From an uncultured Opitutaceae bacterium (GTDB lineage Bacteria > Verrucomicrobiota > Verrucomicrobiia > Opitutales > Opitutaceae), in assembly GCA_964496645.1 (NCBI GenBank), contig CAZCAJ010000023.1:1-54934 (forward strand): a DNA stretch of 54,934 bases, given 5' to 3'. The notes beneath the pieces were generated by a model. The model saw only the letters and a program-made list of their open reading frames with translations. It was not told where the DNA came from and ran no database searches. The first letter of the stretch is position 1, and the number at the start of each line of letters is the position of its first letter. Shown one piece after another: positions 2,295 to 54,934 of the stretch. Position numbers and translations under genes: made by a program.

Positions 2295-3539
2295 TCACTT
2301 CCCGCGGGCGGGAAGGGGCATCACCCAGCCGGGCGGGTTCACGGGGACGACCACGCGCTCCCCGGCGCGGATCCTGGGGGCGTAGCGGCTCCAGTGCATG
2401 TCCGCATAGGCGGGCTCGCGGTCCCTCGGGGCGTTCGCCAGGAGCCCGATGACCACGAGGGCCGCGGCCGCCCTCCCGGCCCGGCCCCCTTCGTCCGCCG
2501 TGACGAGGAGCAGCCATATCGCGACCAGCTGCGGGATGAAGACGTACCGCGCGTGTGCCAGCGGCTCGAAGTACTCGCCAAGCGTGTATCGCGTCCTGAC
2601 GAAGGCCCCGAGGAGCATCGCTGCGAACGCGAGACCCAGGAGGGCCCGCTCCGCCCGGAGCCTGCCGGGCCTGAAGGCCATGTATCCCACCCCCGCGAGG
2701 GTGGCGACGCCCGCGACGGTCCCGATGACAACGTCCGTCTCGGGGGCCATGAGCGAGCCGAGGACGATGGAGGCGCCTATCCTGCGCGCGACCGCGGGAA
2801 GGAAGAGCCGGGCCGCGATCGTGTGAGCCGCGTGGGGATCCCCGGGAAACGGGGGCTCGACGAGGACCAGGGCGAGCTGGACGACGGCGCAGGCGGCGAC
2901 GATGGCCGCGAGGACAAGGCTGGCGCGCGTCCTTCGGCTCCACGCCCGCCAGGCGAACAGCGGGGCGAGGATGATGCAGAACGGGCCGGTCAGGCCCAGG
3001 AGCGCTGCGGCGGCGACGTCGTGGGCCCACTGGCCCGCGCGCCCCGGGTCGCGCGAGACAAGGAGCAGGATCAGGCCGGCCGCCAGCACCCACTGGAGGT
3101 TCACCACGTTGAGGAACACCTCGTACGTGTCGGGGACGAGGACGACGGCGAGGGCGCAGGCGCCGGCGAAGCGGGGGAGGGGGCAGCGCCGCGACAGCGT
3201 CCGGGCCGCGACATAGAGCGTGGCGGCGCCCGAGGACGCCACGAAGATCGCCGGCGCGCGGGCGGGGTCGATCGCCACCGAGGCCTGCGCGATCATCCGC
3301 AGGACCGTGTGGAGGTACCCGGCGAACGGCTCGAGGAATGCCTTCCAGCCGAACACGTAGGCCCGCTCGAAGAAATAGGCGTCCTCGGCCCAGAACTGGG
3401 GGTTCGTCAGCGCCTCGGCCCGGCGCAGGCCGAGGATGACCGCGCACGCCGCGAGGACCGCGGCCGCCGGGGGATCGGCGAGGAGGCGCGAGAGCCGCTC
3501 GCGCGCCGTCAGGGCGCGGCTTGGGAGGACCTCGACCAT
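2295..3539 (-). CDS. Polytopic integral membrane protein of unknown function (about 414 aa, at least 9 predicted TM helices), last gene of the caa3 oxidase operon
   Basis: Long hydrophobic ORF. Internal ATG at 3539 (MVEVLPSRAL...) chosen as start because upstream in-frame sequence is Arg/Pro-rich low-complexity. It overlaps the ctaG stop by 31 nt on the same strand. Motif NPQFWAEDAYFFERAY lies in loop 1. Confidence 0.55.
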   Translation of the reverse strand: MVEVLPSRALTARERLSRLLADPPAAAVLAACAVILGLRRAEALTNPQFWAEDAYFFERAYVFGWKAFLEPFAGYLHTVLRMIAQASVAIDPARAPAIFVASSGAATLYVAARTLSRRCPLPRFAGACALAVVLVPDTYEVFLNVVNLQWVLAAGLILLLVSRDPGRAGQWAHDVAAAALLGLTGPFCIILAPLFAWRAWSRRTRASLVLAAIVAACAVVQLALVLVEPPFPGDPHAAHTIAARLFLPAVARRIGASIVLGSLMAPETDVVIGTVAGVATLAGVGYMAFRPGRLRAERALLGLAFAAMLLGAFVRTRYTLGEYFEPLAHARYVFIPQLVAIWLLLVTADEGGRAGRAAAALVVIGLLANAPRDREPAYADMHWSRYAPRIRAGERVVVPVNPPGWVMPLPARGK

Positions 3540-4294
3540 TTGAAGAAGCAGACTCCGAGCACGGTCAGCGACACGGCCATTCCCACGGATTTCATGATGA
3601 TGCCGGCAAGCAGCTGGTCGTCGGCGGGCGTGAACCCGGCGATCAGCCTCGGCGCATACTCGTAGGTCGGATAGAGAATGTCGCGCGAAAACACGATGTA
3701 GGCCGAGACCGGGATCATGGCGATCTCGGTCCCGACCGCGTAGAGCATGCGCACCCCGTAGCCCGGCGACGGAAAGGCCGCCGAGGGGCTCGCGAGCGGC
3801 CACCAGTACAGGAGCGACGCCGCGAGGAACATGAGGTGCTCGCCGACGTGGGCCAGCTTGTCCTGGAGCGTCCACTCGTAGAGCGCCGGCACGTGCCAGA
3901 GGCTTATGACCGCCGTCGAGACGACCGCGCAGGCGAAGGGGCTGAGGAGCATCCGCAGCGGCGTGCGCAGCACGGGCCGGGATAGGACCGGGTCCGCCAT
4001 CCAGGCCGGGGTCCCCAGCAGGATGAGCAGCGGCACCGGGTACATGATGAGCAGGTGCTGCGCCATGTGCGCCGACAGCAGGAAGCGCTCGCCGACCTGG
4101 TCGAGCGGCGAGCCGACGGCGAGGTAGAAGATGGCTAGCGCGCCGTAGAACCCGACCGCCTGCCCGCGCGGGAAGGGCCTCCCGGGAGCGAGCATCGCCC
4201 TCAGGGGCCCGGCAAGGATCGCGTAGAGCCAGCCGGCGAGGATGAGGCCGCCCGTCAGGAACGGCTCGTTGTGCCAGTGCCGCCAGTCGATCAT
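3509..4294 (-). CDS. ctaG: Cytochrome c oxidase caa3-type assembly factor CtaG (Caa3_CtaG family membrane protein)
   Basis: 261 aa multi-TM protein; MAQHLLIMYPVPLL and WHVPALYEW motifs are typical of Bacillus-type CtaG; located after the subunit genes in the operon. Confidence 0.75.
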   Translation of the reverse strand: MIDWRHWHNEPFLTGGLILAGWLYAILAGPLRAMLAPGRPFPRGQAVGFYGALAIFYLAVGSPLDQVGERFLLSAHMAQHLLIMYPVPLLILLGTPAWMADPVLSRPVLRTPLRMLLSPFACAVVSTAVISLWHVPALYEWTLQDKLAHVGEHLMFLAASLLYWWPLASPSAAFPSPGYGVRMLYAVGTEIAMIPVSAYIVFSRDILYPTYEYAPRLIAGFTPADDQLLAGIIMKSVGMAVSLTVLGVCFFKWSRSSQAAP

Positions 4295-4327
4295 CTTTTC
4301 GCCCGGACGGCCGGCCGGGCGGCCGGT

Positions 4328-4693
4328 TCAGGCGGCCCTGGCGGCCATCGCCGGAGGGGCCGCCGCCGCGAGCGGCTTGCTTGCGTCAGCCCCGAAGAGC
4401 TTGAGGAGCGCGATCATCGTCCCGGCCGCGAGGACGAGGCCGATGAAGAACAGGATCGTGCAGAACGCCCTGTCCCAGCGCAGGTGCATGAAATAGAAGA
4501 TGACGAACATGAACTTCACGGTCGAGAGGACGACCAGCACCGAGAACAGGATCCACCTCATGAAGGGCAGGTAGACGGTGACGAGCTCAAGGCCCGTGAT
4601 GACGGCGAGGAGCATCGCTATCTGGACGAAGATCCAGAACTTGCTCTGCTCGAGCTCGTGGCCCTGGGAGGGGGCTGCTGCGTGGGTGCTCAT
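4328..4693 (-). CDS. ctaF: Cytochrome c oxidase subunit IV (prokaryotic CoxD/CtaF type)
   Basis: 121 aa protein with 3 TM helices; the ...FMFVIFYFMHLRW... region is typical of bacterial aa3/caa3 subunit IV; lies between subunit III and ctaG. Confidence 0.7.
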   Translation of the reverse strand: MSTHAAAPSQGHELEQSKFWIFVQIAMLLAVITGLELVTVYLPFMRWILFSVLVVLSTVKFMFVIFYFMHLRWDRAFCTILFFIGLVLAAGTMIALLKLFGADASKPLAAAAPPAMAARAA

Positions 4694-4717
4694 GTCGGCA
4701 TTCGGCGTTGGAGGGGG

Positions 4718-5338
4718 TCAGATGTACTCGAGCAGGTACACGGCCGTGAAGATCACGATCCAGACGATGTCGACGAAGTGCCAGTACAGGCCCATCGACT
4801 CGACGTCTATCGCCTCCTTCTCGGTCAGCCGGCCCGTGAACGAGTAAAGGAGCATCCCGCTGAGCCAGATCACGCCCACGAGCACGTGGAGGCCGTGCGT
4901 CCCGGTCAGGGTGAAGAACGTGGTGCCGAGGATGCTGTTCGTGATCGTCAGGTGCTTCTCGTACACGAAGTTCCTGAACTCGTAGACCTGGCACCCGAGG
5001 AAGATGCACCCGAAGAAGATCGTCGTCAGCAGCGACCAGCGCATGCTCTTCAGGTTCCCCTTCTGGATCGCGTTGACGGCGAGCGCCATCATCAGGGACG
5101 ACATGAGCAGGATGAAGGTCGAGAACGACGTCAGCTCGATGCTGAAGACCTGCCTTGCCGGCGGGGTCCCCGGGGGCGGGTGAAGCCGGTAGATCAGGTG
5201 CGTCGAGATGAGGCAGCCGAAGAACATGCAGTCCGAGGCGAGGAAGGCCCACATGAGGACCTTCTTGTTCGGGATCCCGGTCGAGGTGGTCGGATCGAAA
5301 TGGTGGTCGATCGTGGCTGTCGCCGCATCGCTGCTCAT
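4718..5338 (-). CDS. ctaE: Cytochrome c oxidase subunit III
   Basis: 206 aa; conserved HHFDP, WAFLASDCMFFG and FTLTGTHGLHVLVG motifs. Confidence 0.9.
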   Translation of the reverse strand: MSSDAATATIDHHFDPTTSTGIPNKKVLMWAFLASDCMFFGCLISTHLIYRLHPPPGTPPARQVFSIELTSFSTFILLMSSLMMALAVNAIQKGNLKSMRWSLLTTIFFGCIFLGCQVYEFRNFVYEKHLTITNSILGTTFFTLTGTHGLHVLVGVIWLSGMLLYSFTGRLTEKEAIDVESMGLYWHFVDIVWIVIFTAVYLLEYI

Positions 5339-5369
5339 GGGGATTGGGTCGGCCGGGGGCCTCGGCTCC

Positions 5370-7361
5370 TCAGTGGTTTGACGGGTAGCCGCCGTGGGCG
5401 TCGTCGCCCGTCACGGTGCCGTCCTTGTCCAGGTGGATGTGGGTGCCTTCGCAGCCCTCGAGCGACCAGAGGACGATCGAGACGAACATGATCGCCCCTC
5501 CCGCCAGCGTGACGGCGATCTTCGGGCCCCAGAACCCGGGGTAAAGGTTGTGGTCGGCAGGGTCGACGATGGCCGTGCCGATCGCGCCGATCATGATGCC
5601 GACGCCCGCGAGGAACGGGTAGATCGACTGGAACGGCATGTGTATCCCCCCATGCGCCTCCTCGGCCTTCGCGTGTTCCTCTTCCTCCCTCGAGACCTCG
5701 TCCGCGTGGCGCTTCTCGTACCACCAGCCGTCGCGCGCGTGGATCGTCGGTATCACCCGGAAATTGTACTCGGGGACCGGGTTCGGGAGGCTCCACTCGA
5801 GCGTCCGTGCGTCCCACGGGTCCTTGCCGGTGCGCTCGCCCCTGTAGTACGTGTAGACCATGGTGACGAGGTAGACCCCGATCCCGCCGGCTAGGATGAA
5901 CGCCCCCACCGATGAGATCATGTTCCCCAGGTTCCAGCCCATGTTCCCGTCGTAGGTGTACGTGCGCCGGGGCATGCCCTCGAGGCCCAGGAAGTGCATG
6001 GGGAAGAACGTCGCGTTGAAGCCGATGAAAACCAGCCAGAACGACGCCTTGCCCCAGAGCTCGCTCACCTTGCGGCCGAACATGAGCGGGAACCAGTAGT
6101 GTATACCCGCCAGGAGGGCGAAGAGCGATCCGCCGATGAGGACGTAGTGGAAGTGGGCGACGACGAAATAGCTTCCGTGCTGCTGCATGTCGGCGGGCGC
6201 CGCGGCGTGCATGACCCCGGAGAAGCCGCCTATCATGAACATCCACAGGAACCCGAGGGCGAACATCATCGGGGTGCGCATGCTCAGGTGGCCCCCCCAG
6301 AGCGTGCCTATCCAGTTGAATATCTTGACGCCCGTCGGCACGGCGATCGCCATCGTCATCAGCGCGAAGGCCGCGTTGGCCACCGTGCCCAGGCCGGAGG
6401 TGAACATGTGGTGGCTCCAGACGCCGAAGCCGAGCAGGCCGATGCTTGCGCCGGAGAAGACGACGATGGGGTACCCGAACAGGGGCTTCCTGGAGAATGT
6501 CGGCAGGATCTCCGAGATGATCCCCATCGCCGGGAGGATGAGGATGTACACCTCCGGATGCCCGAATATCCAGAACAGGTGCTGCCAGAGGATCGGCATG
6601 CCGCCGTTGGAGACCTCGAAGAAGTTCGTGCCGAAGAGCCGGTCCATCATGATCTCCACGAGGGCGATCGTGATCGCGGGGAAGGAGAGGATGATCAGGA
6701 ACGAGGTGAAGAGCGTCATCCAGGTGAACACGGGCAGCCGCATCATGGTCATACCCGGCGCGCGCATGTTGATGATCGTGACGATGAAGTTGAGCGCGGC
6801 CGCGATGGAGGCCACCCCGAGCAGCTGCAGCCCCATGACCCACATGTCGATCGCATGGGTCGGGCTGAACGCCCTCGTCGTGAGCGGGGCGTAGCCGACC
6901 CACCCGGCGTTGGGCACGCCGTCCTTCATGAACCAGCCGAGGTTCACGATGATCGCGCCCACGAGGAACGTCCAGTACGAGAACGCGTTCAGCCGCGGGA
7001 AGGCCACGTCGCGCGCCCCGATCTGGAGCGGCATCACGAAGTTGAAGAACGCCGCCCCGATGGGCATGACGACGAGGAAGATCATCGTCGTCCCGTGCAT
7101 CGTGAACATCTCGCTGTACTGCGCCGACGTGAGGAACGTGTTGTTCGGGACCGCGAGCTGGATGCGGATGAGCAGCGCCTCGATCCCCCCCATGACGAGG
7201 AAGAAGAGCCCGGAGGCGCCGTAGAGGAACCCGATCCGCTTGTGGTCGACCGTGGTCAGCCAGCTCAGGAGGCCCGTCTTTGCCGTCGGGCGCCAGAGGA
7301 CGAGGGGCTTCGCGGGCTGCTGGCCCTTCGCGAGGAAGTCGGACTTGGCAATGGCTTCCAT
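5370..7361 (-). CDS. ctaD: Cytochrome c oxidase subunit I (heme-copper oxidase catalytic subunit) with an extra C-terminal extension of about 150 aa containing 2 TM helices
   Basis: WLTTVDHKRIGFLY, GHPEVYILILP, and the HHMF and HFHYV histidine ligand motifs. Start at MEAIAKSD (ATG 7361); the upstream in-frame Arg-rich 90 aa is judged non-coding. The C-terminal tail ends His-rich (HIHLDKDGTVTGDDAHGGYPSNH). Confidence 0.9.
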   Translation of the reverse strand: MEAIAKSDFLAKGQQPAKPLVLWRPTAKTGLLSWLTTVDHKRIGFLYGASGLFFLVMGGIEALLIRIQLAVPNNTFLTSAQYSEMFTMHGTTMIFLVVMPIGAAFFNFVMPLQIGARDVAFPRLNAFSYWTFLVGAIIVNLGWFMKDGVPNAGWVGYAPLTTRAFSPTHAIDMWVMGLQLLGVASIAAALNFIVTIINMRAPGMTMMRLPVFTWMTLFTSFLIILSFPAITIALVEIMMDRLFGTNFFEVSNGGMPILWQHLFWIFGHPEVYILILPAMGIISEILPTFSRKPLFGYPIVVFSGASIGLLGFGVWSHHMFTSGLGTVANAAFALMTMAIAVPTGVKIFNWIGTLWGGHLSMRTPMMFALGFLWMFMIGGFSGVMHAAAPADMQQHGSYFVVAHFHYVLIGGSLFALLAGIHYWFPLMFGRKVSELWGKASFWLVFIGFNATFFPMHFLGLEGMPRRTYTYDGNMGWNLGNMISSVGAFILAGGIGVYLVTMVYTYYRGERTGKDPWDARTLEWSLPNPVPEYNFRVIPTIHARDGWWYEKRHADEVSREEEEHAKAEEAHGGIHMPFQSIYPFLAGVGIMIGAIGTAIVDPADHNLYPGFWGPKIAVTLAGGAIMFVSIVLWSLEGCEGTHIHLDKDGTVTGDDAHGGYPSNH

Positions 7362-7369
7362 CGGGCGGC

Positions 7370-8635
7370 TCACTTGAGGCTCTCGAGGAAGGCGACCAGG
7401 GCGTCCTCGTCGGCGGGCGTCAGCTTGATGCTGTTCGCGAGGTACCCGTTCACCCACATCTTGTTGCCGGGCTTCACCTCGTTCGGGGCGTGGATCCAGC
7501 GGTGGAGCTCGTCGCGGTTGTTCTCGAGGAGGCCCCCGGCGATCGTCGTGCGCGCGCCGACGTGGGTGAGCTCGGGCCCCTGGATCCCGACGGCGCCGTC
7601 CAGCCCGCGGATCGTGTGGCAGCTGGCGCAAGTCTTAGACACGAAAAGGCCGCGGCCCTTCGCGATCAGGGCCGGATCCTCGTCCTTCCCGGGAAGCTGC
7701 TGCGCCCGCCAGGCGTCGAGCGGGGACACGTCGAACTTGTCGGTGTAGCCCGGCTCGTTCCGGCGGAACTCGCGGTAGGCGGCAAACTGCGCCCTCGGGG
7801 GGGCCCCGGCGGAGGCGACCGCGGCGGGGACGCCGCGGGCGGGCGCCGCCTGCGCGCTGAGCCAGTCGTAGAATTCCCTCGGGCTGAGCGCGATCACGCG
7901 GAACCGCATCACCGCATGCGACTCGCCGCAGAACTCCGCGCACTGCCCCCAGAAATACCCGGGCTTCTCCGCCTTGATCCAGAGGGAGTTGCCGCGGTTG
8001 GGCACCATGTCCACCTTGCCGGCGAGCTTGGGGACCCAGAAGCTGTGGATGACGTCGACCGTGCGCAGGTTGACGTGGACCGGCCGGCCGGCCGGGATCA
8101 CGAGCTCGGAGCCCGTCGTCAGCGGGGCGCTGACGAGCTTGCCCGTCGCGTCGGGCGCCTGGGCCGTCTCGTTTGGATAGTCGAACTTGAACCACCACTG
8201 GTAGCCGGTGGCCGTGACCTCGTACGCGTCGGCCCTCTCGGCCTCCGGGACGTCGTAGGTGTACCAGACGCCCTTGAGGGTGGGGATGGCGATGATGACC
8301 AGCGAGAACACGGAGGCCGCGATCAGGCTCACCTCCACTACCGGGTTGCCGTGGTGCTGCTCGGGCGGCTCGGCGTGCTCGTCGGAATCGCTGCGGGCCC
8401 TGAACCTGATCATCGCGTAGGCCAGGGCGCTGCCGACCAGGATGAAGATCGCCAGCGTCACCCAGCACGTGACGTAGAACAGGTCCAGCTGCTCGCGCGC
8501 GACCGGGCCGTTGGGATCGAAGGTCGACTGCGGGCCGTCCAGCCAGAAGCATCCCGACAGGAGCGGCAAGGCGGCTAGGGCCGCGGCCGAGACGGCCCGT
8601 CGGAGGAGGCGGGTGGGAGGGTCCTTTAAACGCAT
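7370..8635 (-). CDS. ctaC: Cytochrome c oxidase subunit II with fused C-terminal mono-heme cytochrome c domain (caa3-type CtaC), lipoprotein
   Basis: CuA motif H...CAEFCGESHAVM; C-terminal CASCH heme-binding motif; N-terminal lipoprotein signal ...ALPLLSGC. Start at MRLKDPP (ATG 8635) preferred over the upstream ATG at 8704. Confidence 0.88.
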   Translation of the reverse strand: MRLKDPPTRLLRRAVSAAALAALPLLSGCFWLDGPQSTFDPNGPVAREQLDLFYVTCWVTLAIFILVGSALAYAMIRFRARSDSDEHAEPPEQHHGNPVVEVSLIAASVFSLVIIAIPTLKGVWYTYDVPEAERADAYEVTATGYQWWFKFDYPNETAQAPDATGKLVSAPLTTGSELVIPAGRPVHVNLRTVDVIHSFWVPKLAGKVDMVPNRGNSLWIKAEKPGYFWGQCAEFCGESHAVMRFRVIALSPREFYDWLSAQAAPARGVPAAVASAGAPPRAQFAAYREFRRNEPGYTDKFDVSPLDAWRAQQLPGKDEDPALIAKGRGLFVSKTCASCHTIRGLDGAVGIQGPELTHVGARTTIAGGLLENNRDELHRWIHAPNEVKPGNKMWVNGYLANSIKLTPADEDALVAFLESLK

Positions 8636-8862
8636 TTGTGCAGTCGCAACTGAGCGGCGCCCCGAGGGGGGGCCGACAGAACGCGAAGTACAGTCAGCGA
8701 ACATCCGGGCATTTCAAGCCATATTCGGACAGATTTTTCGCCTCCAAGCCAAGCGGAGCCGCCCCGTCCGGCCCCGGGGGCGGACGTTCCGGCACCGCCG
8801 GGCCCTCGCCGCGAGTGTTTCGATTTGCGATTGGGGCCGGCCTGGGCGAGCGTTTCCGCCCG

Positions 8863-9345
8863 ATGAATACACGACTTCTTCTCCTCACTGCTGTTGTCTC
8901 AATTGTCGCTTCCGGCTGCGGCCAGAAGGACTCGTCGACGGCGGGCGCGGCGACCCCGGCCGGACCCCGCGAGATAGACATCACGGCGGGAGACACGATG
9001 AAGTACAGCATCACGGCGATAGAGGCCAAGCCGGGCGAGGACATCAAGGTGGTCCTGACGAACACCGGCACGCAGCCGAAGGAGGTCATGGGTCACAACT
9101 GGATCCTCCTGAAGGCGGGTTCCGACGTCGCGGCGTTTGACGCGGCCGCCCTCAACTCTAAGGACACCGGCTACGTCCCCGCCGCGCTCAGCGACGAGAT
9201 CATCGCCCACATCGACCTCCTGGGGCCCCGCAAGTCGGGCGAGATCGAGTTCCAGGCGCCCACGACGCCGGGCGACTACAACTTCCTGTGCACGTTCCCG
9301 GCCCACTACCAGGCGGGGATGAAGGGCGTGCTCACCGTCAAGTGA
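8863..9345 (+). CDS. Azurin-like type-1 (blue) copper protein, lipoprotein
   Basis: Lipobox IVASGC; the azurin signature MGHNW(I/V)L and C-terminal FLCTFPAHYQAGMKGVLTVK match the azurin Cys/His/Met ligand set; divergent from ctaC. Confidence 0.85.
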   Translation: MNTRLLLLTAVVSIVASGCGQKDSSTAGAATPAGPREIDITAGDTMKYSITAIEAKPGEDIKVVLTNTGTQPKEVMGHNWILLKAGSDVAAFDAAALNSKDTGYVPAALSDEIIAHIDLLGPRKSGEIEFQAPTTPGDYNFLCTFPAHYQAGMKGVLTVK

Positions 9346-9444
9346 CGGCCGCCTGCCGGCCCCGGGGCGCGGGCTGAGGGCGCCCCCGTTGGGTCCGAAT
9401 GCCTTTGCCGCCCCGGGGCGGCCGCGTCAGCGTAGGGCGACACC

Positions 9445-9879
9445 ATGAGCTGGGAGAATGAAAGCCACTACGTCAGCACCGATCCCGGGCTCCTCGACCT
9501 CGACTTCGTGTGCGCGGCGCTTGCCGGGTCCTATTGGGCGCAAGACCGCCCCCGCGACGTGATCGCGCGGTCCATCGGGGCCTCGCTCTGTTTCGGGCTC
9601 TACGAGAAGCGGGGCGGCAGACAGGTGGGCTTCGCCCGGGTCGTCACGGACGCCGCGACCTTCTCGTGGCTGTGCGACGTCGTCGTGGACGAGCGCCACA
9701 GGGGCAAGGGCCTCGGCAAGTTCCTGCTGTCGTGCGTGGTCGCCCACCCGCACGTGAGCTCCACCAAGTGCCTCCTAGCCACCCGCGACGCGCACGCCCT
9801 CTACGAGAAGTTCGGCTTCGCCCGGGCCGAGCAGATGAGGCGGCCGCCGACCGAGGCGCGGCCGCAGGCCCGGGCGTAG
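9445..9879 (+). CDS. GNAT family N-acetyltransferase
   Basis: 144 aa; acetyl-CoA binding motif RGKGLGKFLL and a GNAT-fold pattern. Confidence 0.75.
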   Translation: MSWENESHYVSTDPGLLDLDFVCAALAGSYWAQDRPRDVIARSIGASLCFGLYEKRGGRQVGFARVVTDAATFSWLCDVVVDERHRGKGLGKFLLSCVVAHPHVSSTKCLLATRDAHALYEKFGFARAEQMRRPPTEARPQARA

Positions 9880-9886
9880 CCCTTCT

Positions 9887-10321
9887 CTACCCGCGCTGAG
9901 GCCACCACCGGTACAGGAAGAAGTAGACGAGGACGCCCGTCACCGACACGTAGTACCAGATGGGAAACGTGACGCGGGCCCATGCGCGGTGGCGCTCGAA
10001 GTCCCCCTTCAGGGCGAAGACGAACGTCCGGGGCACGAGGAACGCGATGAGCCCGGCCAGCGGGATGTGGGTCCAGAGGATGGCAAGGTACACCCCGCGG
10101 ATGGCGCCGGCCCCGCCGAAGGGCGTGTGGGCCCCCCTCATCATGGCGTGATAGGTGACGTAAAAGACTAGGAACAAAGCGGATGCCACAGCCGCCGCTA
10201 GCATGCATGCGCGGTGGGCCCCGCGGTCGCCCCGCTTGATGAAGACGAATCCGGCCGTTATCAGGATGGTGGCGATCCCGTTCAGCGCGGCCTCGATCGA
10301 GGGAAGGTCGTGCACGTTCAC
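9887..10321 (-). CDS. DUF420 membrane protein (CtaM-like cytochrome oxidase accessory protein)
   Basis: 144 aa with 4 TM helices, about DUF420 length. GTG start at 10321 overlaps the ctaB stop (GTGA). It is the third gene of the ctaA-ctaB unit, the same context as Bacillus CtaM. Confidence 0.6.
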   Translation of the reverse strand: MNVHDLPSIEAALNGIATILITAGFVFIKRGDRGAHRACMLAAAVASALFLVFYVTYHAMMRGAHTPFGGAGAIRGVYLAILWTHIPLAGLIAFLVPRTFVFALKGDFERHRAWARVTFPIWYYVSVTGVLVYFFLYRWWPQRG

Positions 10322-11208
10322 GGCCGGCTCAGGAGCAGCCTGTCCCCGACGAGCAGGCCAAGGAGCAGGGGGAGGTAGGCCAGCGAGAAGAGGAAGAGCC
10401 TTCGGGCGCCCGCGTCCCGCGACGCCGGCCTGAGGAACGCCGCCGCCCTCCACAGGAAGCACGCGCCGACCGCGAGCGCCGCGGCGCCGTACCACCGGCT
10501 GGCAAGCCCGAGGAACGCAGGGAGCACGCTCACGACCGTCAGCGCGGCGGTCGCGGCGAGCGACCAAAGCGCGACCTTCCCGCCCGACTCGTCGCGCACG
10601 GGCAGCATCGGGAAATGCACTGCGGAATAGTCGCTCCTGTAGGTCCAGGCGATCGCCATGAAGTGCGGGATCTGCCAGAGGAAGAGGATGCCGAAGAGGA
10701 TCCAGCCCAGGGCCGAGACCGCGCCCTGTGCGGCGGACCAGCCTATCAGCGGCGGGAGCGCCCCCGCGATCGCGCCGATCTCGGTGCTCCACAGGCTCCA
10801 GCGCTTCGCCGGCGTGTACCAGCCCAGGTAGAAGGCGATCGTCAGGAGGGTGAAGAGGGCCGCGAGCCTGCCGACCTCCATGAATATGAGCATCAGCGCC
10901 GCGATGCACATGAGCCATCCGAGGACGAACGCCGAGCCCCCCGCGACCCTGCCCGTCGGGATCGGCCGCAGCGCCGTGCGCCGCATCCGCGCGTCCGTGT
11001 CGCTCTCCATCCACTGGTTGAGCGAGGCGACGCCGCCGGCGGCCAGCGAGGTTCCGACGACGAGGAGCCCGACCCGGAGCGGGTCGAACGCGGGCCGCGC
11101 CGCCACGTAGCCCACGAGCGCCGTCATGACCGACAGCAGGCTCAGCCGCGGCTTGGTCAGCTCGAGGTAGTCGCCGAATCGCGCATGCGCGGGAGCTGCG
11201 TCCTTCAT
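10318..11208 (-). CDS. ctaB: Protoheme IX farnesyltransferase (heme O synthase)
   Basis: 296 aa UbiA-family protein with 9 TM helices; FGDYLELTKPRL N-terminus and a conserved Asp-rich region; ATGA overlap with the ctaA stop. Confidence 0.9.
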   Translation of the reverse strand: MKDAAPAHARFGDYLELTKPRLSLLSVMTALVGYVAARPAFDPLRVGLLVVGTSLAAGGVASLNQWMESDTDARMRRTALRPIPTGRVAGGSAFVLGWLMCIAALMLIFMEVGRLAALFTLLTIAFYLGWYTPAKRWSLWSTEIGAIAGALPPLIGWSAAQGAVSALGWILFGILFLWQIPHFMAIAWTYRSDYSAVHFPMLPVRDESGGKVALWSLAATAALTVVSVLPAFLGLASRWYGAAALAVGACFLWRAAAFLRPASRDAGARRLFLFSLAYLPLLLGLLVGDRLLLSRP

Positions 11209-12185
11209 GGGATGGTCCGCCCCTCGATCGCGTCGCGGTGGGCGAGCCACGTGAGCCAGAAGGCGGCGACGAGGGTGAGCGCCCCCACCACCACGTGGCC
11301 CGTCGTGACGCCGACGGCGCGGTAGGTCCGGATTATCAGGGCCCCGAGGAATATCTGGAGGGCGACCAGGCTGACGAGGGCCGAGGCGCCGGAGCGCATC
11401 CCGGGCGACGCCCCACGGTCCCGCCAGACAGCGACCGCGAACCCCGCGATCGCCAACGCGACGGCGCACGCCATGGCGCGGTGGGCGAACTGGATGGCGA
11501 CCTGGAAGCTCCACGCCGCGGGCAGCAGGCCGCCCGCGGGCGTCGACCATGGGAACGTCGGGATCGCCAGGCCTGCGAAGCTGTGGCGCACGACGGCCCC
11601 GATGGCGAGCTGCGCGAAGAGCAGGGCGCAGCAGAGGACCCCCATGCGCCTCGCCCCTTTGCCGACCGGCATGGGCCTCGTGATCCACCCCCTCGAGCAG
11701 GAAACGGCCAGCGCGACGAGGGCGCAGGCGAAGGCCTGCGCGAGGCAGGCGTGGAGCATCGCAATCAGCCGGCCGAGGCTCGTGTCGAGGGGCTCGATGT
11801 GGATCCGGTCGAGCAGGACGCGGAGCCCGCCGACGACCGCCTGGGCGACCACGAGGCCGAGCGCAAGGTACGAGAGCCTGCGCAGCCACGCCCTCTGCTC
11901 GGTGCGCCAGAGCCAGGCGGCGAGGACGAGGGTGAGGGCCGTCATCATGCCCGCGCTCAGCCGGTGCGAGTGCTCGGCGAACATCGACAGGTTCGTGAGC
12001 CAGCCCTCGGGGTTGAGCGAGCCGTTCGAAAGCGGCCAGTCCGGGAACGCCATTCCCGCGTTGATCGTCGTCGTGAAGGCGCCGAGCGCCACCAGCACGA
12101 AGACCCAGGCCGCGGCAAAGGCCGAGAACGCAGCGAGCGCCGGCCTGTATGAGGCGTTTTGCTGGTGATCGGGCCGTGCGTCCAT
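11205..12185 (-). CDS. ctaA: Heme A synthase (COX15/CtaA family)
   Basis: 326 aa with 8 TM helices; paired His motifs (AEHSHR and FAHRAMA) typical of type-2 CtaA; upstream of ctaB. Confidence 0.85.
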   Translation of the reverse strand: MDARPDHQQNASYRPALAAFSAFAAAWVFVLVALGAFTTTINAGMAFPDWPLSNGSLNPEGWLTNLSMFAEHSHRLSAGMMTALTLVLAAWLWRTEQRAWLRRLSYLALGLVVAQAVVGGLRVLLDRIHIEPLDTSLGRLIAMLHACLAQAFACALVALAVSCSRGWITRPMPVGKGARRMGVLCCALLFAQLAIGAVVRHSFAGLAIPTFPWSTPAGGLLPAAWSFQVAIQFAHRAMACAVALAIAGFAVAVWRDRGASPGMRSGASALVSLVALQIFLGALIIRTYRAVGVTTGHVVVGALTLVAAFWLTWLAHRDAIEGRTIP

Positions 12186-12271
12186 GAGCGGGGGGAATGA
12201 GCAGAAGAAGGCAACATCGTGCCCGCCTCAAACGCTTTGACAAATTTTTCCTCGGGCGGATTGGTGTCTCC

Positions 12272-13177
12272 ATGCGAACCACTGCCGGGCGCCAACTCCT
12301 TGCGTGCGCGGCGCTGGCCGCGCTCGCGTCGGGCGGCTGCGGGAGGGGGACCGGGGGAGCCCCGGCCGTCTCCTCCGCGCCCCCCGGCGAGAGGCGCTTC
12401 GCCCTTTCGGGGGAGATCCTCTCGGTCGACGCCAAGCGGAAGGTCCTCGTCGTGCGGCACAACGAGGTCGCCGGCTACATGCCCGCGATGACCATGGAGT
12501 TCCCGGTCTCCGCGGGCGACGCGGCCGCCGCGAGGCCCGGCGAGCGGATCCGGGCGGAACTCGTGGTGGAGCGGGGAGGGGCCCTCCGGCTCGAGAGGAT
12601 CTGGCCAAACGACTCGGTCTCCCTCGACACGATCGACGCGGGCGCCCGCATGCTCCGCCAGGACACGCTTGCGAAGGGCGGTGCGGCCTTCAGGGAGGTC
12701 GGCGAGAGGGCTCCGGAGTTCGTGCTCTACGACCAAAACGGCCGCGTCGTCAGCAGCGCGCGCTTCCGCGGCAAGCAGATCATGCTCAACTTCATCTACT
12801 CGCGCTGCCCGGTGGCGAACATGTGCCCGCTGTCAACGGCGAAGATGATGGCCGCGCAGAAGCTCGCGAGGGAATCGGGCGTGGGCGACATCGAGTTCGT
12901 ATCGGTCACGATGGACCCGGCGTACGACACACCGGGAGTCCTCAGGGATTACGCCGACCAGCGGGGGATAGACACGTCCAACTTCTCCTTCCTGACCGGC
13001 CCCGAGGCGGCGATCCGGGACCTGCTGGCGCAGTTCGGCGTGATCGCGGAGTTCAGGGGGAACATCCTCGACCACACGCTGGCGACGCTCCTCATCGACG
13101 AGAAGGGCCGGATCGCGTGGAGGGCCGACGGGAGCGCCTGGGAGCCGAGGGAGTTCGTGGAGCGGATGCACCGGTGA
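12272..13177 (+). CDS. SCO1/SenC-family copper chaperone fused to an N-terminal CusF-like Cu(I)-binding domain; lipoprotein
   Basis: Lipobox LASGGC. The N-terminal about 110 aa carry the CusF-type motif HNEVAGYMPAMTMEFPV. The C-terminal thioredoxin-fold SCO domain has the metal-site His in the DHT motif, but an atypical C-x5-C (SRCPVANMCP) instead of the canonical CxxxC. Confidence 0.8.
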   Translation: MRTTAGRQLLACAALAALASGGCGRGTGGAPAVSSAPPGERRFALSGEILSVDAKRKVLVVRHNEVAGYMPAMTMEFPVSAGDAAAARPGERIRAELVVERGGALRLERIWPNDSVSLDTIDAGARMLRQDTLAKGGAAFREVGERAPEFVLYDQNGRVVSSARFRGKQIMLNFIYSRCPVANMCPLSTAKMMAAQKLARESGVGDIEFVSVTMDPAYDTPGVLRDYADQRGIDTSNFSFLTGPEAAIRDLLAQFGVIAEFRGNILDHTLATLLIDEKGRIAWRADGSAWEPREFVERMHR

Positions 13178-14106
13178 CGGACGGCGGGGACACACCGAGA
13201 ATCGGGGCCCGCGAGTGGCGCCAGATCGCCGCGATCACGGCGTCGGCGATCCTGCTATTCCTCGTCGTCCGCGAGCTGCCGACGGGGACCAACCTGAGCC
13301 ACATGGACTTCCGGGTGCAGGGCGCGAACACCATCGAGTTCTGCGACCCGGCCAACCCCCAGTTCCTGCCTGTGGTCGCCGTGCGCTCGCCGGTGTCGCT
13401 CACCGTGTCTACGCCCTCGCCGCCGCGGGCCGGCTCGGAGGTGGCGGCGACCCTGGTCCTCACCACCTTCAGCGGCAAGCCGATCGCGCCGGAGGACCTG
13501 CAGGTGGTCCAGACGAGGCGCGTACACCTCCTGATCGTCGACCCGTCGCTCGACGACTACCAGCACGTGCACCCGGTGCCGGGCCGCAGGCCAGGCGAGT
13601 GGGAATTCAGCTTCCGGCCGCGGTTCGGCGGGGCCTACCGGATCTTTGCGGACTTCACGCCGGTCGCCACGAACCGCGGACTCTACTCGGAGACCGAGAT
13701 GGGCGTAGCCGGGGCGCCCAGCCCGGTGGCCGCGGGATCCCAGCCGCGGTCGTGGGCCTGGGCGGGGGACGGATACCTCCTCGAGCTCTCGCCGGGCGCG
13801 CCGCCGATACGCGCGGGATCACCGGCCGACCTCAGGCTCGTCATCACGGCGACCGGAGGCGGCCCGGTGCCTCTGGAGACCGTCATGGGCGCGTATGCGC
13901 ACCTGGTCGCTTTCGACGCGCAGAGGAGCGGATTCGCGCACATCCACCCGCGGGAGGCCGACGTGACCCGCCGGCCCGATCCCCTGCGCCCGGCCTTCAC
14001 GTTCAGGCTGATGATCCCGCATCCCGGCCGGTACGTCATCTGGAGCGAGGTGAACCTGGCCGGCAAGCTCACCTTCGCCCCCTTCTGGTTCGACGTGAGC
14101 CCGTGA
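13174..14106 (+). CDS. Periplasmic or membrane-anchored protein with two internal repeats carrying H-x-H-P motifs; putative copper-handling protein (YtkA/FixH-like?)
   Basis: GTG start at 13174 overlaps the SCO1 stop (GTGA). N-terminal TM or signal anchor IAAITASAILLFLVV. Two repeats of about 100 aa align to each other (HLLIVDPSLDDYQHVHP...GAYRIFADF versus HLVAFDAQRSGFAHIHP...GRYVIWSEV). No confident family match from memory. Confidence 0.55.
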   Translation: MTDGGDTPRIGAREWRQIAAITASAILLFLVVRELPTGTNLSHMDFRVQGANTIEFCDPANPQFLPVVAVRSPVSLTVSTPSPPRAGSEVAATLVLTTFSGKPIAPEDLQVVQTRRVHLLIVDPSLDDYQHVHPVPGRRPGEWEFSFRPRFGGAYRIFADFTPVATNRGLYSETEMGVAGAPSPVAAGSQPRSWAWAGDGYLLELSPGAPPIRAGSPADLRLVITATGGGPVPLETVMGAYAHLVAFDAQRSGFAHIHPREADVTRRPDPLRPAFTFRLMIPHPGRYVIWSEVNLAGKLTFAPFWFDVSP

Positions 14107-18841: not shown

Positions 18842-20071
18842 GTGCCCTGGTACCTCCACCTCGCCCTGAGGCAGCTCTTCCCGACGGGACGGTGGTTCCC
18901 GTTCTTCACCCTCATCTCGACGCTGGGCGTGGCGCTCGGGGTCGCCCTCCTCGTCATCGTCATGAGCGTCATGGGCGGGTTCGCGCACGAGATCCGCCAC
19001 ATGATCGTGGACACCGAGGGGGAGGTGCAGATCGTCGCCCGGGGCTGGATCGCGGACTACCCCTCGGTGATCAGAAAGGTCGAGTCTGTGCCGGGGGTGT
19101 CCGCGGCGACGCCCTACGCGCGCGACGCGGTGATGATCAAGTTCGGCGACAAGAGCGCATTCCCGATGCTGCGCGGCCTCGACCTCTCGAGCGTCGAGCG
19201 CGTCACGCGCCTCGCCGGCTACGTCCGCATCGGCTCCCTGGACGACCTCGACGACGACTCCATCATCCTGAGCGCCCAGCTCGCCGCCAGCATCGGGGCC
19301 AGCGTCGGGGACACGGTCGAGGTCTACTCGCCGCTCATCATCAACAAGCTGAGCGCGGACGAGGTCTTCCTGCCGAGGCAGGTCAGGGTCGTAGGGATCC
19401 TGGAGATCGGCCACCAGCAGCTCGACAGCAGCACGGTCTACGGGACCCTCCGGCTCGCCCAGGACCTGTACGGGCTGGGCTCGACGGTCCACGGGATAGA
19501 CGTCCGCCTCGACCCCGGCGTGCGCGAGGACGAGGCGGCGGCCCGGATAAACGCCGTGCTGCCCGAGGACGTGCGGGCGTTCTCCTGGGAGGAGAGCTTC
19601 TCCGAGTTCCTGTGGGTCCTGAACCTCGAGCGCGGGATGATATTCTTCCTGCTCCTCTTCATCGTGATCGTGGCGGCCTTCTCGGTCACAAGCTCGCTGC
19701 TCATCTCGGTCGTGCGCAAGACGCGGGAGATCGGCCTCCTTGGCGCCCTCGGGGGCAGGGCGGTCCACGTCGCGGCGTGCTTCTGCGCGCAGGGCCTGCT
19801 CATCGGCGTCATGGGGACGGCCGTCGGCCTCGCGATCGGCTTCACGGCGCTGGCGTTCCGCAACGACGTGGTCCTCTGGATCGCCAAGGCCACCCGGCAC
19901 GAGGAGGTCCTGACCCGCTTCTACCAGGTCAACAGCCTCCCGTCGTACACCTCCGGGTCGACCGTCGCGCTCATCATCGTGCTGACCGTCGCGATCTCGA
20001 CCCTGGCCGGGCTCCTGCCGGCCTGGAAGGCCGCGAGCCTGAGGCCCGTGGAGGCGCTCCGCAGTGAGTGA
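18842..20071 (+). CDS. lolE: Lipoprotein-releasing system transmembrane protein LolC/E (FtsX-like ABC permease)
   Basis: About 410 aa; MacB-like periplasmic domain between TM1 and TM2; 3 TM helices in the C-terminal FtsX domain. Start uncertain: GTG at 18842 (just after the lysS stop) or the upstream ATG at 18812. Confidence 0.8.
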   Translation: MPWYLHLALRQLFPTGRWFPFFTLISTLGVALGVALLVIVMSVMGGFAHEIRHMIVDTEGEVQIVARGWIADYPSVIRKVESVPGVSAATPYARDAVMIKFGDKSAFPMLRGLDLSSVERVTRLAGYVRIGSLDDLDDDSIILSAQLAASIGASVGDTVEVYSPLIINKLSADEVFLPRQVRVVGILEIGHQQLDSSTVYGTLRLAQDLYGLGSTVHGIDVRLDPGVREDEAAARINAVLPEDVRAFSWEESFSEFLWVLNLERGMIFFLLLFIVIVAAFSVTSSLLISVVRKTREIGLLGALGGRAVHVAACFCAQGLLIGVMGTAVGLAIGFTALAFRNDVVLWIAKATRHEEVLTRFYQVNSLPSYTSGSTVALIIVLTVAISTLAGLLPAWKAASLRPVEALRSE

Positions 20072-23910: not shown

Positions 23911-24999
23911 TCACATTGGCGCGGCCTGGCGCGAAGCCTCCGCGCTCTGCCCGGGCGGGCCCGCGGCGGCGACGGAGCGCAGCAGGGGCTCGACCTGCCT
24001 CCAGAGGCCGTCGGCGCGCTGACCGAGCATGGCCCTGCACCTGGCTATCTCCGCCTCGCGGGCGAACCGGTTTCGCTCCGCGATCCTCGCGAGGTCGTCA
24101 AGATTGTACAGGAACACGTTCTGCAGGTCCGCCGCCGACGCCTCGACGTCGCGCGGGATGGCCAGGTCGATGAGAAGGAGGGGTCGGGCGGGCCGCCTGC
24201 CCATCGCCTCGGCGATGGCGGAGGTCTCGAGCACCGCGCCCGGGGCCGCCGTCGAGCAGACGACGATGTCGTAGTCGGAGAGGCGCGAGCGGCGCTCGTC
24301 AAAATCCACCATTCCCGCCCCCAGGCCGCCGGCGACCTCGGTCGCCCGCTCCCTGTTGCGGCCCGCTACCGCGAGGTGCGCGGCACCCCGGCTCATGAAG
24401 GCCCGCGCCGTCCCCTCGCCGATCTCGCCCGTCCCGAGGACGAGGACCCTTGCGCCCGCAAGGTCGCCGAAAATGTTGGAAGCCAGCTCGACGGCCACGT
24501 TCGAGACGCTCACGCGCCCGGCCGATATCCCGGTGTGGGTGCGCACGTGCTTGGCCGCCTGGAACGCCTTCTGGAAGACTCGGTTTAGCACCGAGCCGGT
24601 TGAGCCGCGGGCCTTGGCCGCGGCGTAGGCCTCCTTCACCTGGCCGAAGATCTCGTTCTCGCCCAGCAGCTGGGAGTCGAGCCCGCTGGCGACCTCAAAG
24701 AGGTGGAGCGCCGCGTCGCGACCCGCGTGCCTGTGCCGTATGCGCTCGAATTCCGCGGCGTCGAACCGCTGGCGCGCACAGTACGCCGCCTTCACCAACT
24801 CCTCCGTGTCCCCGCCAGCGCCCACCCCGTAGATCTCGACGCGGTTGCACGTGTTGAGCACCGCGAACTCACTGAGGCCGGGAACGGCGGCCAGGTCGGC
24901 CCGGAACCCGTCCTCGGAGACCAGAGCAAGCCTTTCCCTGACCTCGACCGGCGCCCTGTGGTGGGACGCGCCGATGACGAAAAGGCGGGGCTCGCTCAT
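23911..24999 (-). CDS. hemA: Glutamyl-tRNA reductase
   Basis: LNTCNRVEIY catalytic-Cys motif and the NADPH-binding GTGEIG motif; 362 aa. Confidence 0.92.
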   Translation of the reverse strand: MSEPRLFVIGASHHRAPVEVRERLALVSEDGFRADLAAVPGLSEFAVLNTCNRVEIYGVGAGGDTEELVKAAYCARQRFDAAEFERIRHRHAGRDAALHLFEVASGLDSQLLGENEIFGQVKEAYAAAKARGSTGSVLNRVFQKAFQAAKHVRTHTGISAGRVSVSNVAVELASNIFGDLAGARVLVLGTGEIGEGTARAFMSRGAAHLAVAGRNRERATEVAGGLGAGMVDFDERRSRLSDYDIVVCSTAAPGAVLETSAIAEAMGRRPARPLLLIDLAIPRDVEASAADLQNVFLYNLDDLARIAERNRFAREAEIARCRAMLGQRADGLWRQVEPLLRSVAAAGPPGQSAEASRQAAPM

Positions 25000-25844
25000 T
25001 GCGAGGTCCGCTCGGGGGCCGGCGCGGCCCCGGGGTGGCGGCTCCCCTCGACCGCCTCCAGGGAGAGGAGCGCCGCGGCGAACAGGGCCAGGCACGTCCA
25101 GGCGAACCTCCGGGCAAGCAGGCGCCCGGCGATCCTCATCCCGAGCGCCGCGGCGTACGCGATCCAGACGGCGACCGTCGACGCGAGCTTCAAATGGCCC
25201 ACCGTGGCGGTGTCCCGCGACCAGTACACCCAGCCGAAGCCGAGCGCGGCCGTGAGGATCGCCACCCCCGCCCCGAGGAGGCGCACCTCGATGTGGTCGA
25301 GGTCCATGATCGACGGAAGGAAATAGAACCAGCCTCCCAGGTTCTTGGACTTGAGCGAATAGTGGCGCATCAGGAACATGGCCGAGGCGAGAGCGAGCAG
25401 CCCGAAGACGCCGTAGCTGAACATCGCGAGGGCCGCGTGAAGCTCGATCCACGGGTTGCCGCCAAAGATGTGCGTCCGGCGGATGGCGTCCCAGGACGGG
25501 ATCGAGAGCGACACGAAGGTGAGGGCGGCGCCGAGGCACGACGTGAAGACCCCGAAGATGCTCGAGCGGAACGTTACGCCGACGACGAGGTAGAGGGTGA
25601 TGGCCGACCACGCGGTGAACTGGAAGATCTCGAACCGGTTGCCAAGAGGGCAGCCGCCCGTCGCGTGGCCGCGCATGCCCAGCCCGACGAACTGGAGGAG
25701 ATAGCCCAGGGCGATCGCCCCGTAGACGGTCGCGCCGGAGGTCCTCCCCCCGCGCAGAAGCGACACCGTGCCCAGGAGCACCCCTGCGGCGTACAGCGCC
25801 GCGGCGCCCCAGAGCCATTGCCGGTCGGACAGGTATGCGGTCAT
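24996..25844 (-). CDS. Cytochrome c assembly protein family membrane protein (CcsA/HemX-like) upstream of hemA
   Basis: 282 aa with 8 TM helices; ATGA overlap with hemA, the same arrangement as hemX-hemA in Firmicutes; Trp-rich segment GFGWVYWSRD. Confidence 0.75.
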   Translation of the reverse strand: MTAYLSDRQWLWGAAALYAAGVLLGTVSLLRGGRTSGATVYGAIALGYLLQFVGLGMRGHATGGCPLGNRFEIFQFTAWSAITLYLVVGVTFRSSIFGVFTSCLGAALTFVSLSIPSWDAIRRTHIFGGNPWIELHAALAMFSYGVFGLLALASAMFLMRHYSLKSKNLGGWFYFLPSIMDLDHIEVRLLGAGVAILTAALGFGWVYWSRDTATVGHLKLASTVAVWIAYAAALGMRIAGRLLARRFAWTCLALFAAALLSLEAVEGSRHPGAAPAPERTSQ

Positions 25845-25886
25845 TGACCGACGATGCTGCCGGGGCCGCGGCCGCGGGCAAGCCCG

Positions 25887-54879: not shown

Positions 54880-54934
<55 letters not shown>

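Follow-up and report, generated by a model that had tools for sequence, protein, structure and literature searches.

A caa3-type oxidase gene cluster of an Opitutaceae bacterium, with a variant Sco protein and a candidate copper-handling partner

Layout of the cluster and its oxidase genes

The stretch of DNA considered here is a contig of 54,934 nucleotides (nt) from an uncultured Opitutaceae bacterium (CAZCAJ010000023.1, assembly GCA_964496645.1), which is called the window in what follows. Between positions 2295 and 14106 it carries the genes of a caa3-type cytochrome c oxidase, genes for heme A synthesis and oxidase assembly, a cupredoxin gene, and two translationally coupled genes which encode a Sco-like lipoprotein and a protein of 310 amino acids (aa) from an unnamed family (Table 1). 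Our reading of this region, to which we give a probability of about 0.6, is that it is a vertically inherited caa3 oxidase grouped with most of the genes that make its cofactors, and that the Sco/310-aa pair handles the copper of this oxidase.

Table 1. Genes and intergenic features of the cluster, in the order of their positions in the window.
Feature	Coordinates	Strand	Profile match or remark
GT-C-fold membrane protein, glycosyltransferase-like, 414 aa	2295-3539	-	start overlaps ctaG by 31 nt
ctaG, Caa3_CtaG-type assembly factor, 261 aa	3509-4294	-	PF09678
Subunit IV, ctaF-like, 121 aa	4328-4693	-	PF03626 (COX4_pro), 38.1 bits
ctaE, short subunit III, 206 aa	4718-5338	-	PF00510 (COX3), 87.7 bits
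ctaD, subunit I, 663-667 aa	5370-7361/7373	-	TIGR02891 (COX1)
ctaC, subunit II lipoprotein, CuA and C-terminal cytochrome c	7370-8635	-	TIGR02866, PF00116, PF00034
ctaC/cupredoxin divergent intergenic region	8636-8862		conserved box GGCATTTCAAGCC(ATATT) at ~8708-8725
Type-1 copper protein, azurin/auracyanin-like lipoprotein, 160 aa	8863-9345	+	PF00127; lipobox VASGC
GNAT acetyltransferase, 144 aa	9445-9879	+	PF13508, PF00583
DUF420 (CtaM-like) membrane protein	9887-10321	-	PF04238
ctaB, UbiA family	10318-11208	-	PF01040, 175.4 bits; ATGA overlap with ctaA stop
ctaA, heme A synthase (COX15/CtaA), 326 aa	11205-12185	-	PF02628, 118.1 bits
ctaA/Sco divergent spacer, 86 nt	12186-12271		conserved box (GCAAACCC)TTTGACAA
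CusF-like + Sco-like fusion lipoprotein	12272-13177	+	PF11604, PF02630; lipobox ASGGC
310-aa protein, unnamed family	13174-14106	+	GTGA overlap with Sco stop

Since the G+C content of the window is 64-73%, the genes were called by third-position GC frame analysis first, and then by profile searches in Pfam and NCBIfam. Every gene named in the initial annotation of this region was recovered in its place, and the matches to Caa3_CtaG, DUF420, SCO1-SenC and CusF are all above the Pfam gathering scores; the gene of a GNAT acetyltransferase, between those of the cupredoxin and DUF420, was absent from the initial list. ATGA or GTGA overlaps join ctaC to ctaD, ctaA to ctaB, ctaB to the DUF420 gene and the Sco gene to the 310-aa gene. 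Four or five transcription units are counted, instead of the three first proposed.

The genes ctaC, ctaD, ctaE and the ctaF-like gene encode one caa3-type cytochrome c oxidase of family A1. CtaC scores 165.7 bits with TIGR02866 (equivalog cutoff of 147.7) and 38.3 bits with PF00034 at residues 324-421, and its translation shows a lipobox (LLSGC), the CuA ligands (H...CAEFCGESHAVM) and a heme site (CASCH). CtaD scores 698 bits with TIGR02891, against an equivalog cutoff of 670.75; its gene starts either with a GTG at 7373, which makes a GTGA overlap with the stop of ctaC, or with an ATG at 7361. The motifs WIFGHPEVY, SHHMF and AHFHY are found in its translation (GHPEV contains the D-channel glutamate typical of A1-type oxidases), and two extra helices are predicted in its C-terminal extension.

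The match of CtaG to PF09678 is full-length (179.2 bits, cutoff of 27.7), and its score with the equivalog model of Bacillus CtaG is below the cutoff (TIGR02737, 116.8 vs. 279.35). It is best described as a member of the Caa3_CtaG family, rather than a demonstrated equivalog of Bacillus CtaG, with a putative role in CuB insertion. The DUF420 protein scores 140.6 bits with PF04238 (gathering score of 30.5). By their sequences, both proteins would be assembly factors of families known from Bacillus, in which Caa3_CtaG and CtaM are required for active oxidases. Heme O and heme A are made by CtaB and CtaA, and the UbiA-family product of ctaB is taken here as the heme O synthase. The gene set had been described as a Bacillus-like caa3 set in a diderm: the families of the subunits and of the assembly factors do match those of Bacillus, but the combination is not unusual. 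Indeed, the clustering of Caa3_CtaG with a COX1 protein that bears two extra helices has been described in several bacterial groups (PMC8239418).

The region was also thought to be a self-contained island. This is unsupported, because its base composition is not distinct (the GC content of the cluster is inside the range of the whole window) and because its flanks are conserved in relatives, with cysA/cysK on one side and genes for PNP_UDP_1, nucleoside hydrolase and lipoyl synthase on the other. No integrase or tRNA was found at the borders of the cluster, and a scan with Rfam gave no RNA element within it. The remaining genes of the window are housekeeping genes. The region is a conserved chromosomal cluster, inherited vertically, and not a mobile island.

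The Sco-like fusion and its 310-aa partner

The Sco domain of the fusion lipoprotein scores 85.6 bits with PF02630 (gathering score of 22.8), and its histidine aligns with the copper-ligand histidine of Blr1131 and other solved Sco proteins. Redoxin and AhpC-TSA are further profiles that this domain matches, and there are weak matches to models of ResA and TlpA. Its cysteine motif departs from the canonical CxxxC: it reads RCPVANMCP (C-x5-C), and the alignments to the structures 4hde and 4wbj place an insertion of two residues inside the CxxxC. The C-x5-C is found in 128 of 129 Sco homologues, the general form of the motif being C-P-V-A-x-M-C-P.

The N-terminal CusF-like domain scores 39.3 bits with PF11604 (gathering score of 27). 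Its ligand pattern is H-x7-M-P-A-M-T-M-E-F, where a methionine replaces Trp44 of the E. coli protein. Low-GC marine Sco homologues (L085, L093, L102, L111, L123, L147, L161 and L163, in our numbering of the related loci) keep the CusF-like domain without its His/Met ligands; the same proteins retain C-x5-C...H, and their partners retain the histidine clusters described below. A limited full-text literature search found no paper that describes a CusF-Sco fusion, or the link between oxidase and azurin genes in Opitutaceae.

The 310-aa protein has no match in Pfam, NCBIfam or the sequences of the PDB, the latter searched with a profile made from a 61-sequence alignment (A1). Its family is nevertheless large: an exhaustive search gave 2,513 cluster representatives at E ≤ 0.001 (clusters at 50% identity). 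The AlphaFold model, based on 61 diverse relatives, has a pLDDT (predicted local distance difference test) of 93.1 and consists of an N-terminal transmembrane (TM) helix (residues 12-34) and two immunoglobulin (Ig)-like β-sandwiches. The tandem repeat reported in the initial annotation is borne out by the local alignment of the two halves, which scores 89 compared to 31.6 ± 5.2 for shuffled sequences.

Each Ig-like domain has a motif H-x4-D-x7-H-x-H-P on a β-hairpin (in a fuller form, H-L-x3-D-x5-(Y/F)-x-H-x-H-P), whose residues are H118, D123, H131 and H133 in the first domain and H243, D248, H256 and H258 in the second. In the model, strand 117-122 pairs with strand 129-132, and strand 243-248 with strand 254-257; from this pairing, the three histidines of each hairpin should cluster in space. 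The protein contains eight histidines, six of which are those of the motifs, and these six are 88-92% conserved over 150 cluster representatives. Cys57, in an E-x-C motif, is present in all 92 representatives that have this region, and is the single cysteine of the Opitutaceae partner. Distant members have a second cysteine (C-x2-L-H), near the membrane, 18-20 residues before the invariant one. It is found in 47 of 50 distant loci, compared to 0 of 110 close loci (alignments A1 and A3), and the Opitutaceae clade, the window included, has lost it.

Longer paralogues contain the same two-domain module fused to HMBD or to DUF3347. The gene of one HMBD-fused paralogue lies between CusB-like and CusA-like genes, beside those of an HMA protein and a YHS/HMBD P-type ATPase.

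Several known families were considered for the 310-aa protein and rejected. The window protein has no hit with YtkA (PF13115) even at E ≤ 10. Three of the 61 relatives match this profile, with a best E value of 0.0012, and one relative (P0403), labelled "YtkA-like" in UniRef, aligns through its first domain to positions 6-84 of the 85 of the profile with 18.0 bits, the cutoff being 25.9. Membership of PCuAC (DUF461) was discarded from the lack of the H(M)x10Mx21HxM motif and of a Pfam match. As for FixH/CcoH (PF05751), two of the 61 relatives match at E 0.07, and the window protein does not. A Foldseek search of the PDB with the model returned generic tandem Ig-like matches only, with low TM-scores. 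The best structural match is CrdA, closely followed in score by generic Ig and filamin domains.

Conservation, control regions and the cupredoxin

The synteny was analyzed by searching 160 related loci with the proteins of the window (tblastn), and in a scan restricted to one genome per species (80 loci, all from Opitutales). The loci are called close when their 310-aa homologue is at least 48% identical to that of the window. The nearest homologues of the 310-aa protein belong to named Opitutaceae. The full layout across this family is ctaG-IV-E-D-C / cupredoxin / DUF420-ctaB-ctaA / Sco-310aa; the whole of it recurs in L001, where the 310-aa homologue has 71% identity, and in most of the 80 Opitutales genomes. 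The linkage proposed initially is therefore conserved, and no scattering of the homologues is seen within Opitutaceae. The gene ctaA is divergent from the Sco gene and adjacent to it in 91 of 91 close loci, and the Sco gene immediately precedes the 310-aa gene, both in the same orientation, in 129 of the 133 loci with enough upstream sequence. The Sco stop overlaps the 310-aa start in every case inspected (the window, L001, L082, L167 and L168).

Coraliomargarita sinensis has its oxidase genes in the same operon as ctaB-ctaA, which runs divergently from Sco-310aa; DUF420 lies downstream, and a cupredoxin gene is missing. In Cerasicoccus arenae, ctaB-ctaA alone is paired with Sco-310aa. The 310-aa homologues of Coraliomargarita and Cerasicoccus are 36-38% identical to a marine member of the family (P0290), and the link of the pair to ctaB-ctaA or DUF420 also persists in several marine contigs. 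The deeply conserved unit is smaller than was first proposed: it consists of Sco-310aa, usually with ctaA-ctaB. On one marine contig (L084, 8966-9973), a gene for a MerR-family regulator, which could be metal-responsive, lies directly downstream of the 310-aa homologue.

The two divergent intergenic regions each have their own conserved box, and no motif common to both was found. In the ctaA/Sco spacer, TTGTCAAA/TTTGACAA is present at fixed spacing in 96 of 102 loci. In the window, the TTGACA at 12237-12242 is 50 nt from the ATG of ctaA and about 29 nt before the ATG of Sco, a geometry which points to a Sco mRNA with a very short leader or none at all, or else to a shared operator. In the ctaC/cupredoxin region, the core CATTTCAA is present in 59 of 64 loci, about 73 nt before the start of ctaC, which is a fixed distance, whereas the GGCATTTCAAGCC box lies anywhere between 135 and 315 nt from the start of the cupredoxin gene. 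On the ctaC strand the GGCATTTCAAGCC box reads CTTGAAATGCC and resembles a -35 element. A scan for consensus promoters and terminators was of no help: it gave 0 promoters, and terminator-like sites which are all inside genes.

The gene divergent from ctaC had been annotated as azurin. Its product is indeed a type-1 copper protein (PF00127, 49.2 bits vs. a gathering score of 21.2) with the ligand pattern GHNW...CTFPAHYQAGM, but it falls below the azurin equivalog cutoff (TIGR02695, 71.1 vs. 105.1). Its best matches in the PDB are the auracyanins 6kol (2e-19) and 1ov8 (2e-18), followed by azurin (5e-15) and Neisseria Laz (1.8e-14); by these scores it is closer to the auracyanins of Roseiflexus and Chloroflexus than to azurin. 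It has in common with auracyanins and Laz the type-1 copper, the H/C/H/M ligands and the membrane tether, and differs from them in that its gene is divergent beside ctaC, in a non-phototrophic verrucomicrobium. The four ligands are kept in 64 of 66 cupredoxin homologues, and the lipobox in 61 of 66.

This protein would be a membrane-tethered one-electron carrier, and plausibly feeds the cytochrome c domain of CtaC. Auracyanin is proposed to be a mobile electron carrier downstream of alternative complex III (ACIII) (PMC3150298), and a lipid-tethered carrier feeding CtaC is plausible because auracyanins are proposed to carry electrons from ACIII. As an electron donor of the oxidase the cupredoxin is designated by synteny, which is the sole basis for this role, and the proposal is the most tentative of those made here. 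A serious contender, which we hold to be only somewhat the less probable side of the question, is that the cupredoxin is not the donor of this oxidase and acts in another pathway, for example as the acceptor of an ACIII or bc quinol:acceptor oxidoreductase, or in CopI-like copper protection. Its position beside ctaC would then reflect nothing but shared regulation by copper or oxygen. CtaC already has its own cytochrome c entry domain, and the cupredoxin gene, which lies between ctaC and DUF420 in 62 of 70 close loci, is missing from the other 8 and from Coraliomargarita, where the oxidase operon is the same. The fixed distance of the intergenic box to ctaC, and not to the cupredoxin, the lack of a common motif in the two divergent regions and a weak and partial match of the cupredoxin to CopI go in the same direction. 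The donor role is nonetheless favored by the position kept in 62 of 70 loci, by the conservation of the type-1 ligands and the lipid anchor, and by the nearest solved relatives, the auracyanins, which are membrane-associated and proposed to accept electrons from ACIII (PMC3150298). Moreover, the cupredoxin has no His/Met-rich stretch of the sort expected of a CopI-like protein. There are no ACIII or bc genes within the window.

Two genes of the cluster are passengers. The protein encoded next to ctaG, first described as an unknown membrane protein, can be assigned as glycosyltransferase-like: it has a GT-C membrane fold and an acidic motif in the first extracytoplasmic loop. It is a member of the operon only in a subclade, and is treated here as a lineage-specific passenger. 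Its gene is restricted to the closest clade, overlaps ctaG in the window and in L170, and has another location in L169; elsewhere, cysK abuts ctaG directly. The GNAT gene is a variable passenger, present in only five related loci (L002, L003, L083, L126 and L151). Its slot is occupied in L001 by an unrelated 173-aa open reading frame (ORF) with no Pfam match, and is empty in many others.

Other features lie further away in the window. About 10 kb from the cluster (23911-26375, minus strand), an operon encodes a thioredoxin-like protein, a protein of the Cytochrom_C_asm family (CcsA/HemX-like) and the glutamyl-tRNA reductase HemA. This trio is present in L001 too, and is a possible link between the neighborhood of the cluster and heme synthesis or the maturation of cytochrome c. 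Two paralogues of the PEMT family (phospholipid methyltransferase-like) are encoded less than 2 kb apart on the plus strand (34838-35359 and 36686-37183), among small genes of weaker coding-composition signal. An 83-nt tRNA-Pro(GGG) called by ARAGORN at 19554-19636 (plus strand), within an FtsX/MacB-like ORF (18842-20071), has no Rfam support and is probably a false positive. Rfam does detect a truncated tRNA at the extreme end of the window (54880-54934, plus strand).

Proposed copper handling by the Sco/310-aa pair

In the mechanism that we propose as the most parsimonious, the copper of the oxidase would be handled on the periplasmic face by the translationally coupled Sco/310-aa pair, transcribed divergently from ctaA. 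At the membrane surface, the 310-aa protein would capture or buffer copper, giving it to Sco or taking it from Sco; Sco would in turn metallate the CuA center of CtaC. The CusF-like domain would be a source or a recipient of Cu(I). The 310-aa partner may be a functional analogue of CtaK or PCuAC. Copper as the metal, the direction of the transfer and CuA as the target are each inferred, by analogy with known systems. In the initial annotation, the Sco-coupled protein was suggested to be the CuA metallochaperone. The part of this claim that concerns copper delivery is supported indirectly, by the adjacency of the two genes (129/133), the stop/start overlap, the conservation of the six histidines (about 90%) and the HMBD-fused paralogues, whereas CuA is no more than a presumed target.

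Several observations weigh against this proposal. In distant low-GC marine loci the pair is usually apart from the cta genes (ctaA is adjacent in 4 of 24), and lies beside ftsQAZ, in one example, or other housekeeping genes. The distant marine relatives have lost the ligands of the CusF-like domain. The three-histidine sites predicted from the model could suit Zn, Ni or Fe, and not Cu only. Lastly, the only Sco::partner fusion found (P0278, 662 aa), at first sight Rosetta-stone evidence, is probably an artefact: although the synteny of its contig (L083, ENA contig_14982) is the same as that of the window, it was discounted as an assembly artefact because this contig is full of frameshifts, ctaD being in five pieces and Sco in four.

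The pair might instead be a general module of periplasmic copper buffering or resistance, which sequesters copper or hands it to efflux systems and is only by chance beside the heme A genes in Opitutaceae. The HMBD-fused paralogues in the CusB/CusA/HMA/P-type ATPase efflux cluster fit with this idea, as do the fused CusF-like domain, whose family is known from copper efflux, the location of the pair away from ctaA in 20 of 24 distant loci, one of them with the MerR-family regulator directly downstream, and the best structural match, CrdA, which is a copper resistance protein. We consider it unlikely, however. In the close loci ctaA is divergently adjacent in 91 of 91 cases, across an 86-nt control region of fixed geometry, and the pair is still found with ctaB-ctaA or DUF420 in Coraliomargarita, Cerasicoccus and several marine contigs. 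No efflux pump gene was found near the cluster among the profile matches in the window, and oxidase assembly is the function for which Sco proteins are best known (PMC9145763).

It is improbable that the Sco-like protein is mainly a TlpA-like thiol-disulfide oxidoreductase which keeps the CuA cysteines of CtaC reduced, with the 310-aa protein as its redox partner or scaffold: the matches of the Sco domain to Redoxin, AhpC-TSA and, weakly, ResA and TlpA, the invariant Cys57 of the partner and the second cysteine located about 20 residues upstream in most distant members agree with such a function, but a C-x5-C with an internal conserved methionine and a copper-ligand histidine is unlike a redox-active CxxC, the Opitutaceae partner holds a single cysteine, and the six conserved histidines would be left unexplained.

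If the pair does handle the copper of the oxidase, its closest counterparts are the systems in which CuA is built by Sco together with another copper protein of the periplasm, either PCuAC or CtaK (PMC9145763, PMC13344008). The routes known for the loading of CuA and CuB use Sco with PCuAC, Sco with CtaK, or proceed without Sco, and more factors are expected (PMC9145763). In B. subtilis, Sco works with the membrane-tethered CtaK in CuA assembly (PMC9145763, PMC13344008). CtaK (YtkA) is, as predicted for the 310-aa protein, a membrane-tethered Ig-like protein that works beside Sco (PMC9145763, PMC13344008); the window protein differs from it by its TM anchor and its two His-cluster domains, and its family is sub-threshold for the YtkA Pfam profile. 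The PCuAC (DUF461) and ScoI systems of Bradyrhizobium, Thermus and Rhodobacter also pair Sco with a second periplasmic β-sandwich protein (PMC9145763), which is predicted to be copper-binding in the window. However, the 310-aa protein lacks H(M)x10Mx21HxM and is membrane-anchored and duplicated, with His-only motifs. Compared to the PCuAC pathway, the Met/His site for Cu(I) would be supplied here by the CusF-like domain fused to Sco, and this domain could also be what donates Cu(I). No sequence similarity is detectable between the 310-aa protein and the β-sandwich proteins of the CopC/PcoC/CrdA and P19 types, and CrdA has a Met-rich loop and no His (PMC9182242), unlike the His motifs seen here.

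The Sco protein of the window belongs to the same thioredoxin fold family as canonical Sco1/SenC, with an aligned copper-ligand histidine and a lipoprotein anchor as in Bacillus. Compared to these proteins, including B. subtilis Sco, its CxxxC is widened by two residues to C-x5-C and it has an N-terminal CusF-like OB-fold domain. In this domain, which canonical Sco1/SenC do not have, the ligands are conserved in Opitutaceae and gone from the marine relatives.

The cluster as a whole resembles ctaA/ctaB-ctaCDEFG of B. subtilis, with a CtaC lipoprotein bearing cytochrome c, a C-terminal extension of CtaD, a short CtaE, a small subunit IV, and assembly proteins of the same families (Caa3_CtaG, DUF420 (CtaM), CtaA, CtaB and Sco (YpmQ)). 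The gene order differs: ctaA-ctaB-ctaM form one operon here, a cupredoxin gene is inserted, and the host is a diderm.

For the most part, the cluster is a system of a familiar type, seen here in a phylum that has been little studied. The oxidase, the heme A genes and the cupredoxin are textbook material, whose value lies mainly in the annotation of respiration in Opitutaceae. What is new is the variant Sco, whose obligate partner belongs to a large and still unnamed family of His-cluster Ig-like proteins; the two are a variation on the known theme of Sco plus chaperone. We tentatively propose, at odds that we judge close to even but just short of it, that the C-x5-C Sco and the TM-anchored tandem Ig-like tri-His protein form an undescribed two-component copper chaperone system for the maturation of heme-copper oxidases in the class Opitutia, and that the His-cluster module defines a new and widespread family of periplasmic copper-binding domains, recruited through HMBD fusion into Cus-type efflux.

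The loading of CuA and CuB differs between bacterial lineages, and there are signs in this cluster of a third type of Sco partner, along with an altered copper motif in Sco. The 310-aa partner and the C-x5-C Sco are strictly co-inherited across an abundant clade of soil and freshwater bacteria. If it is true that the tri-His Ig-like module binds copper, a large family that lacks annotation, and which is also found in copper efflux loci, would gain a name and a function that can be tested.

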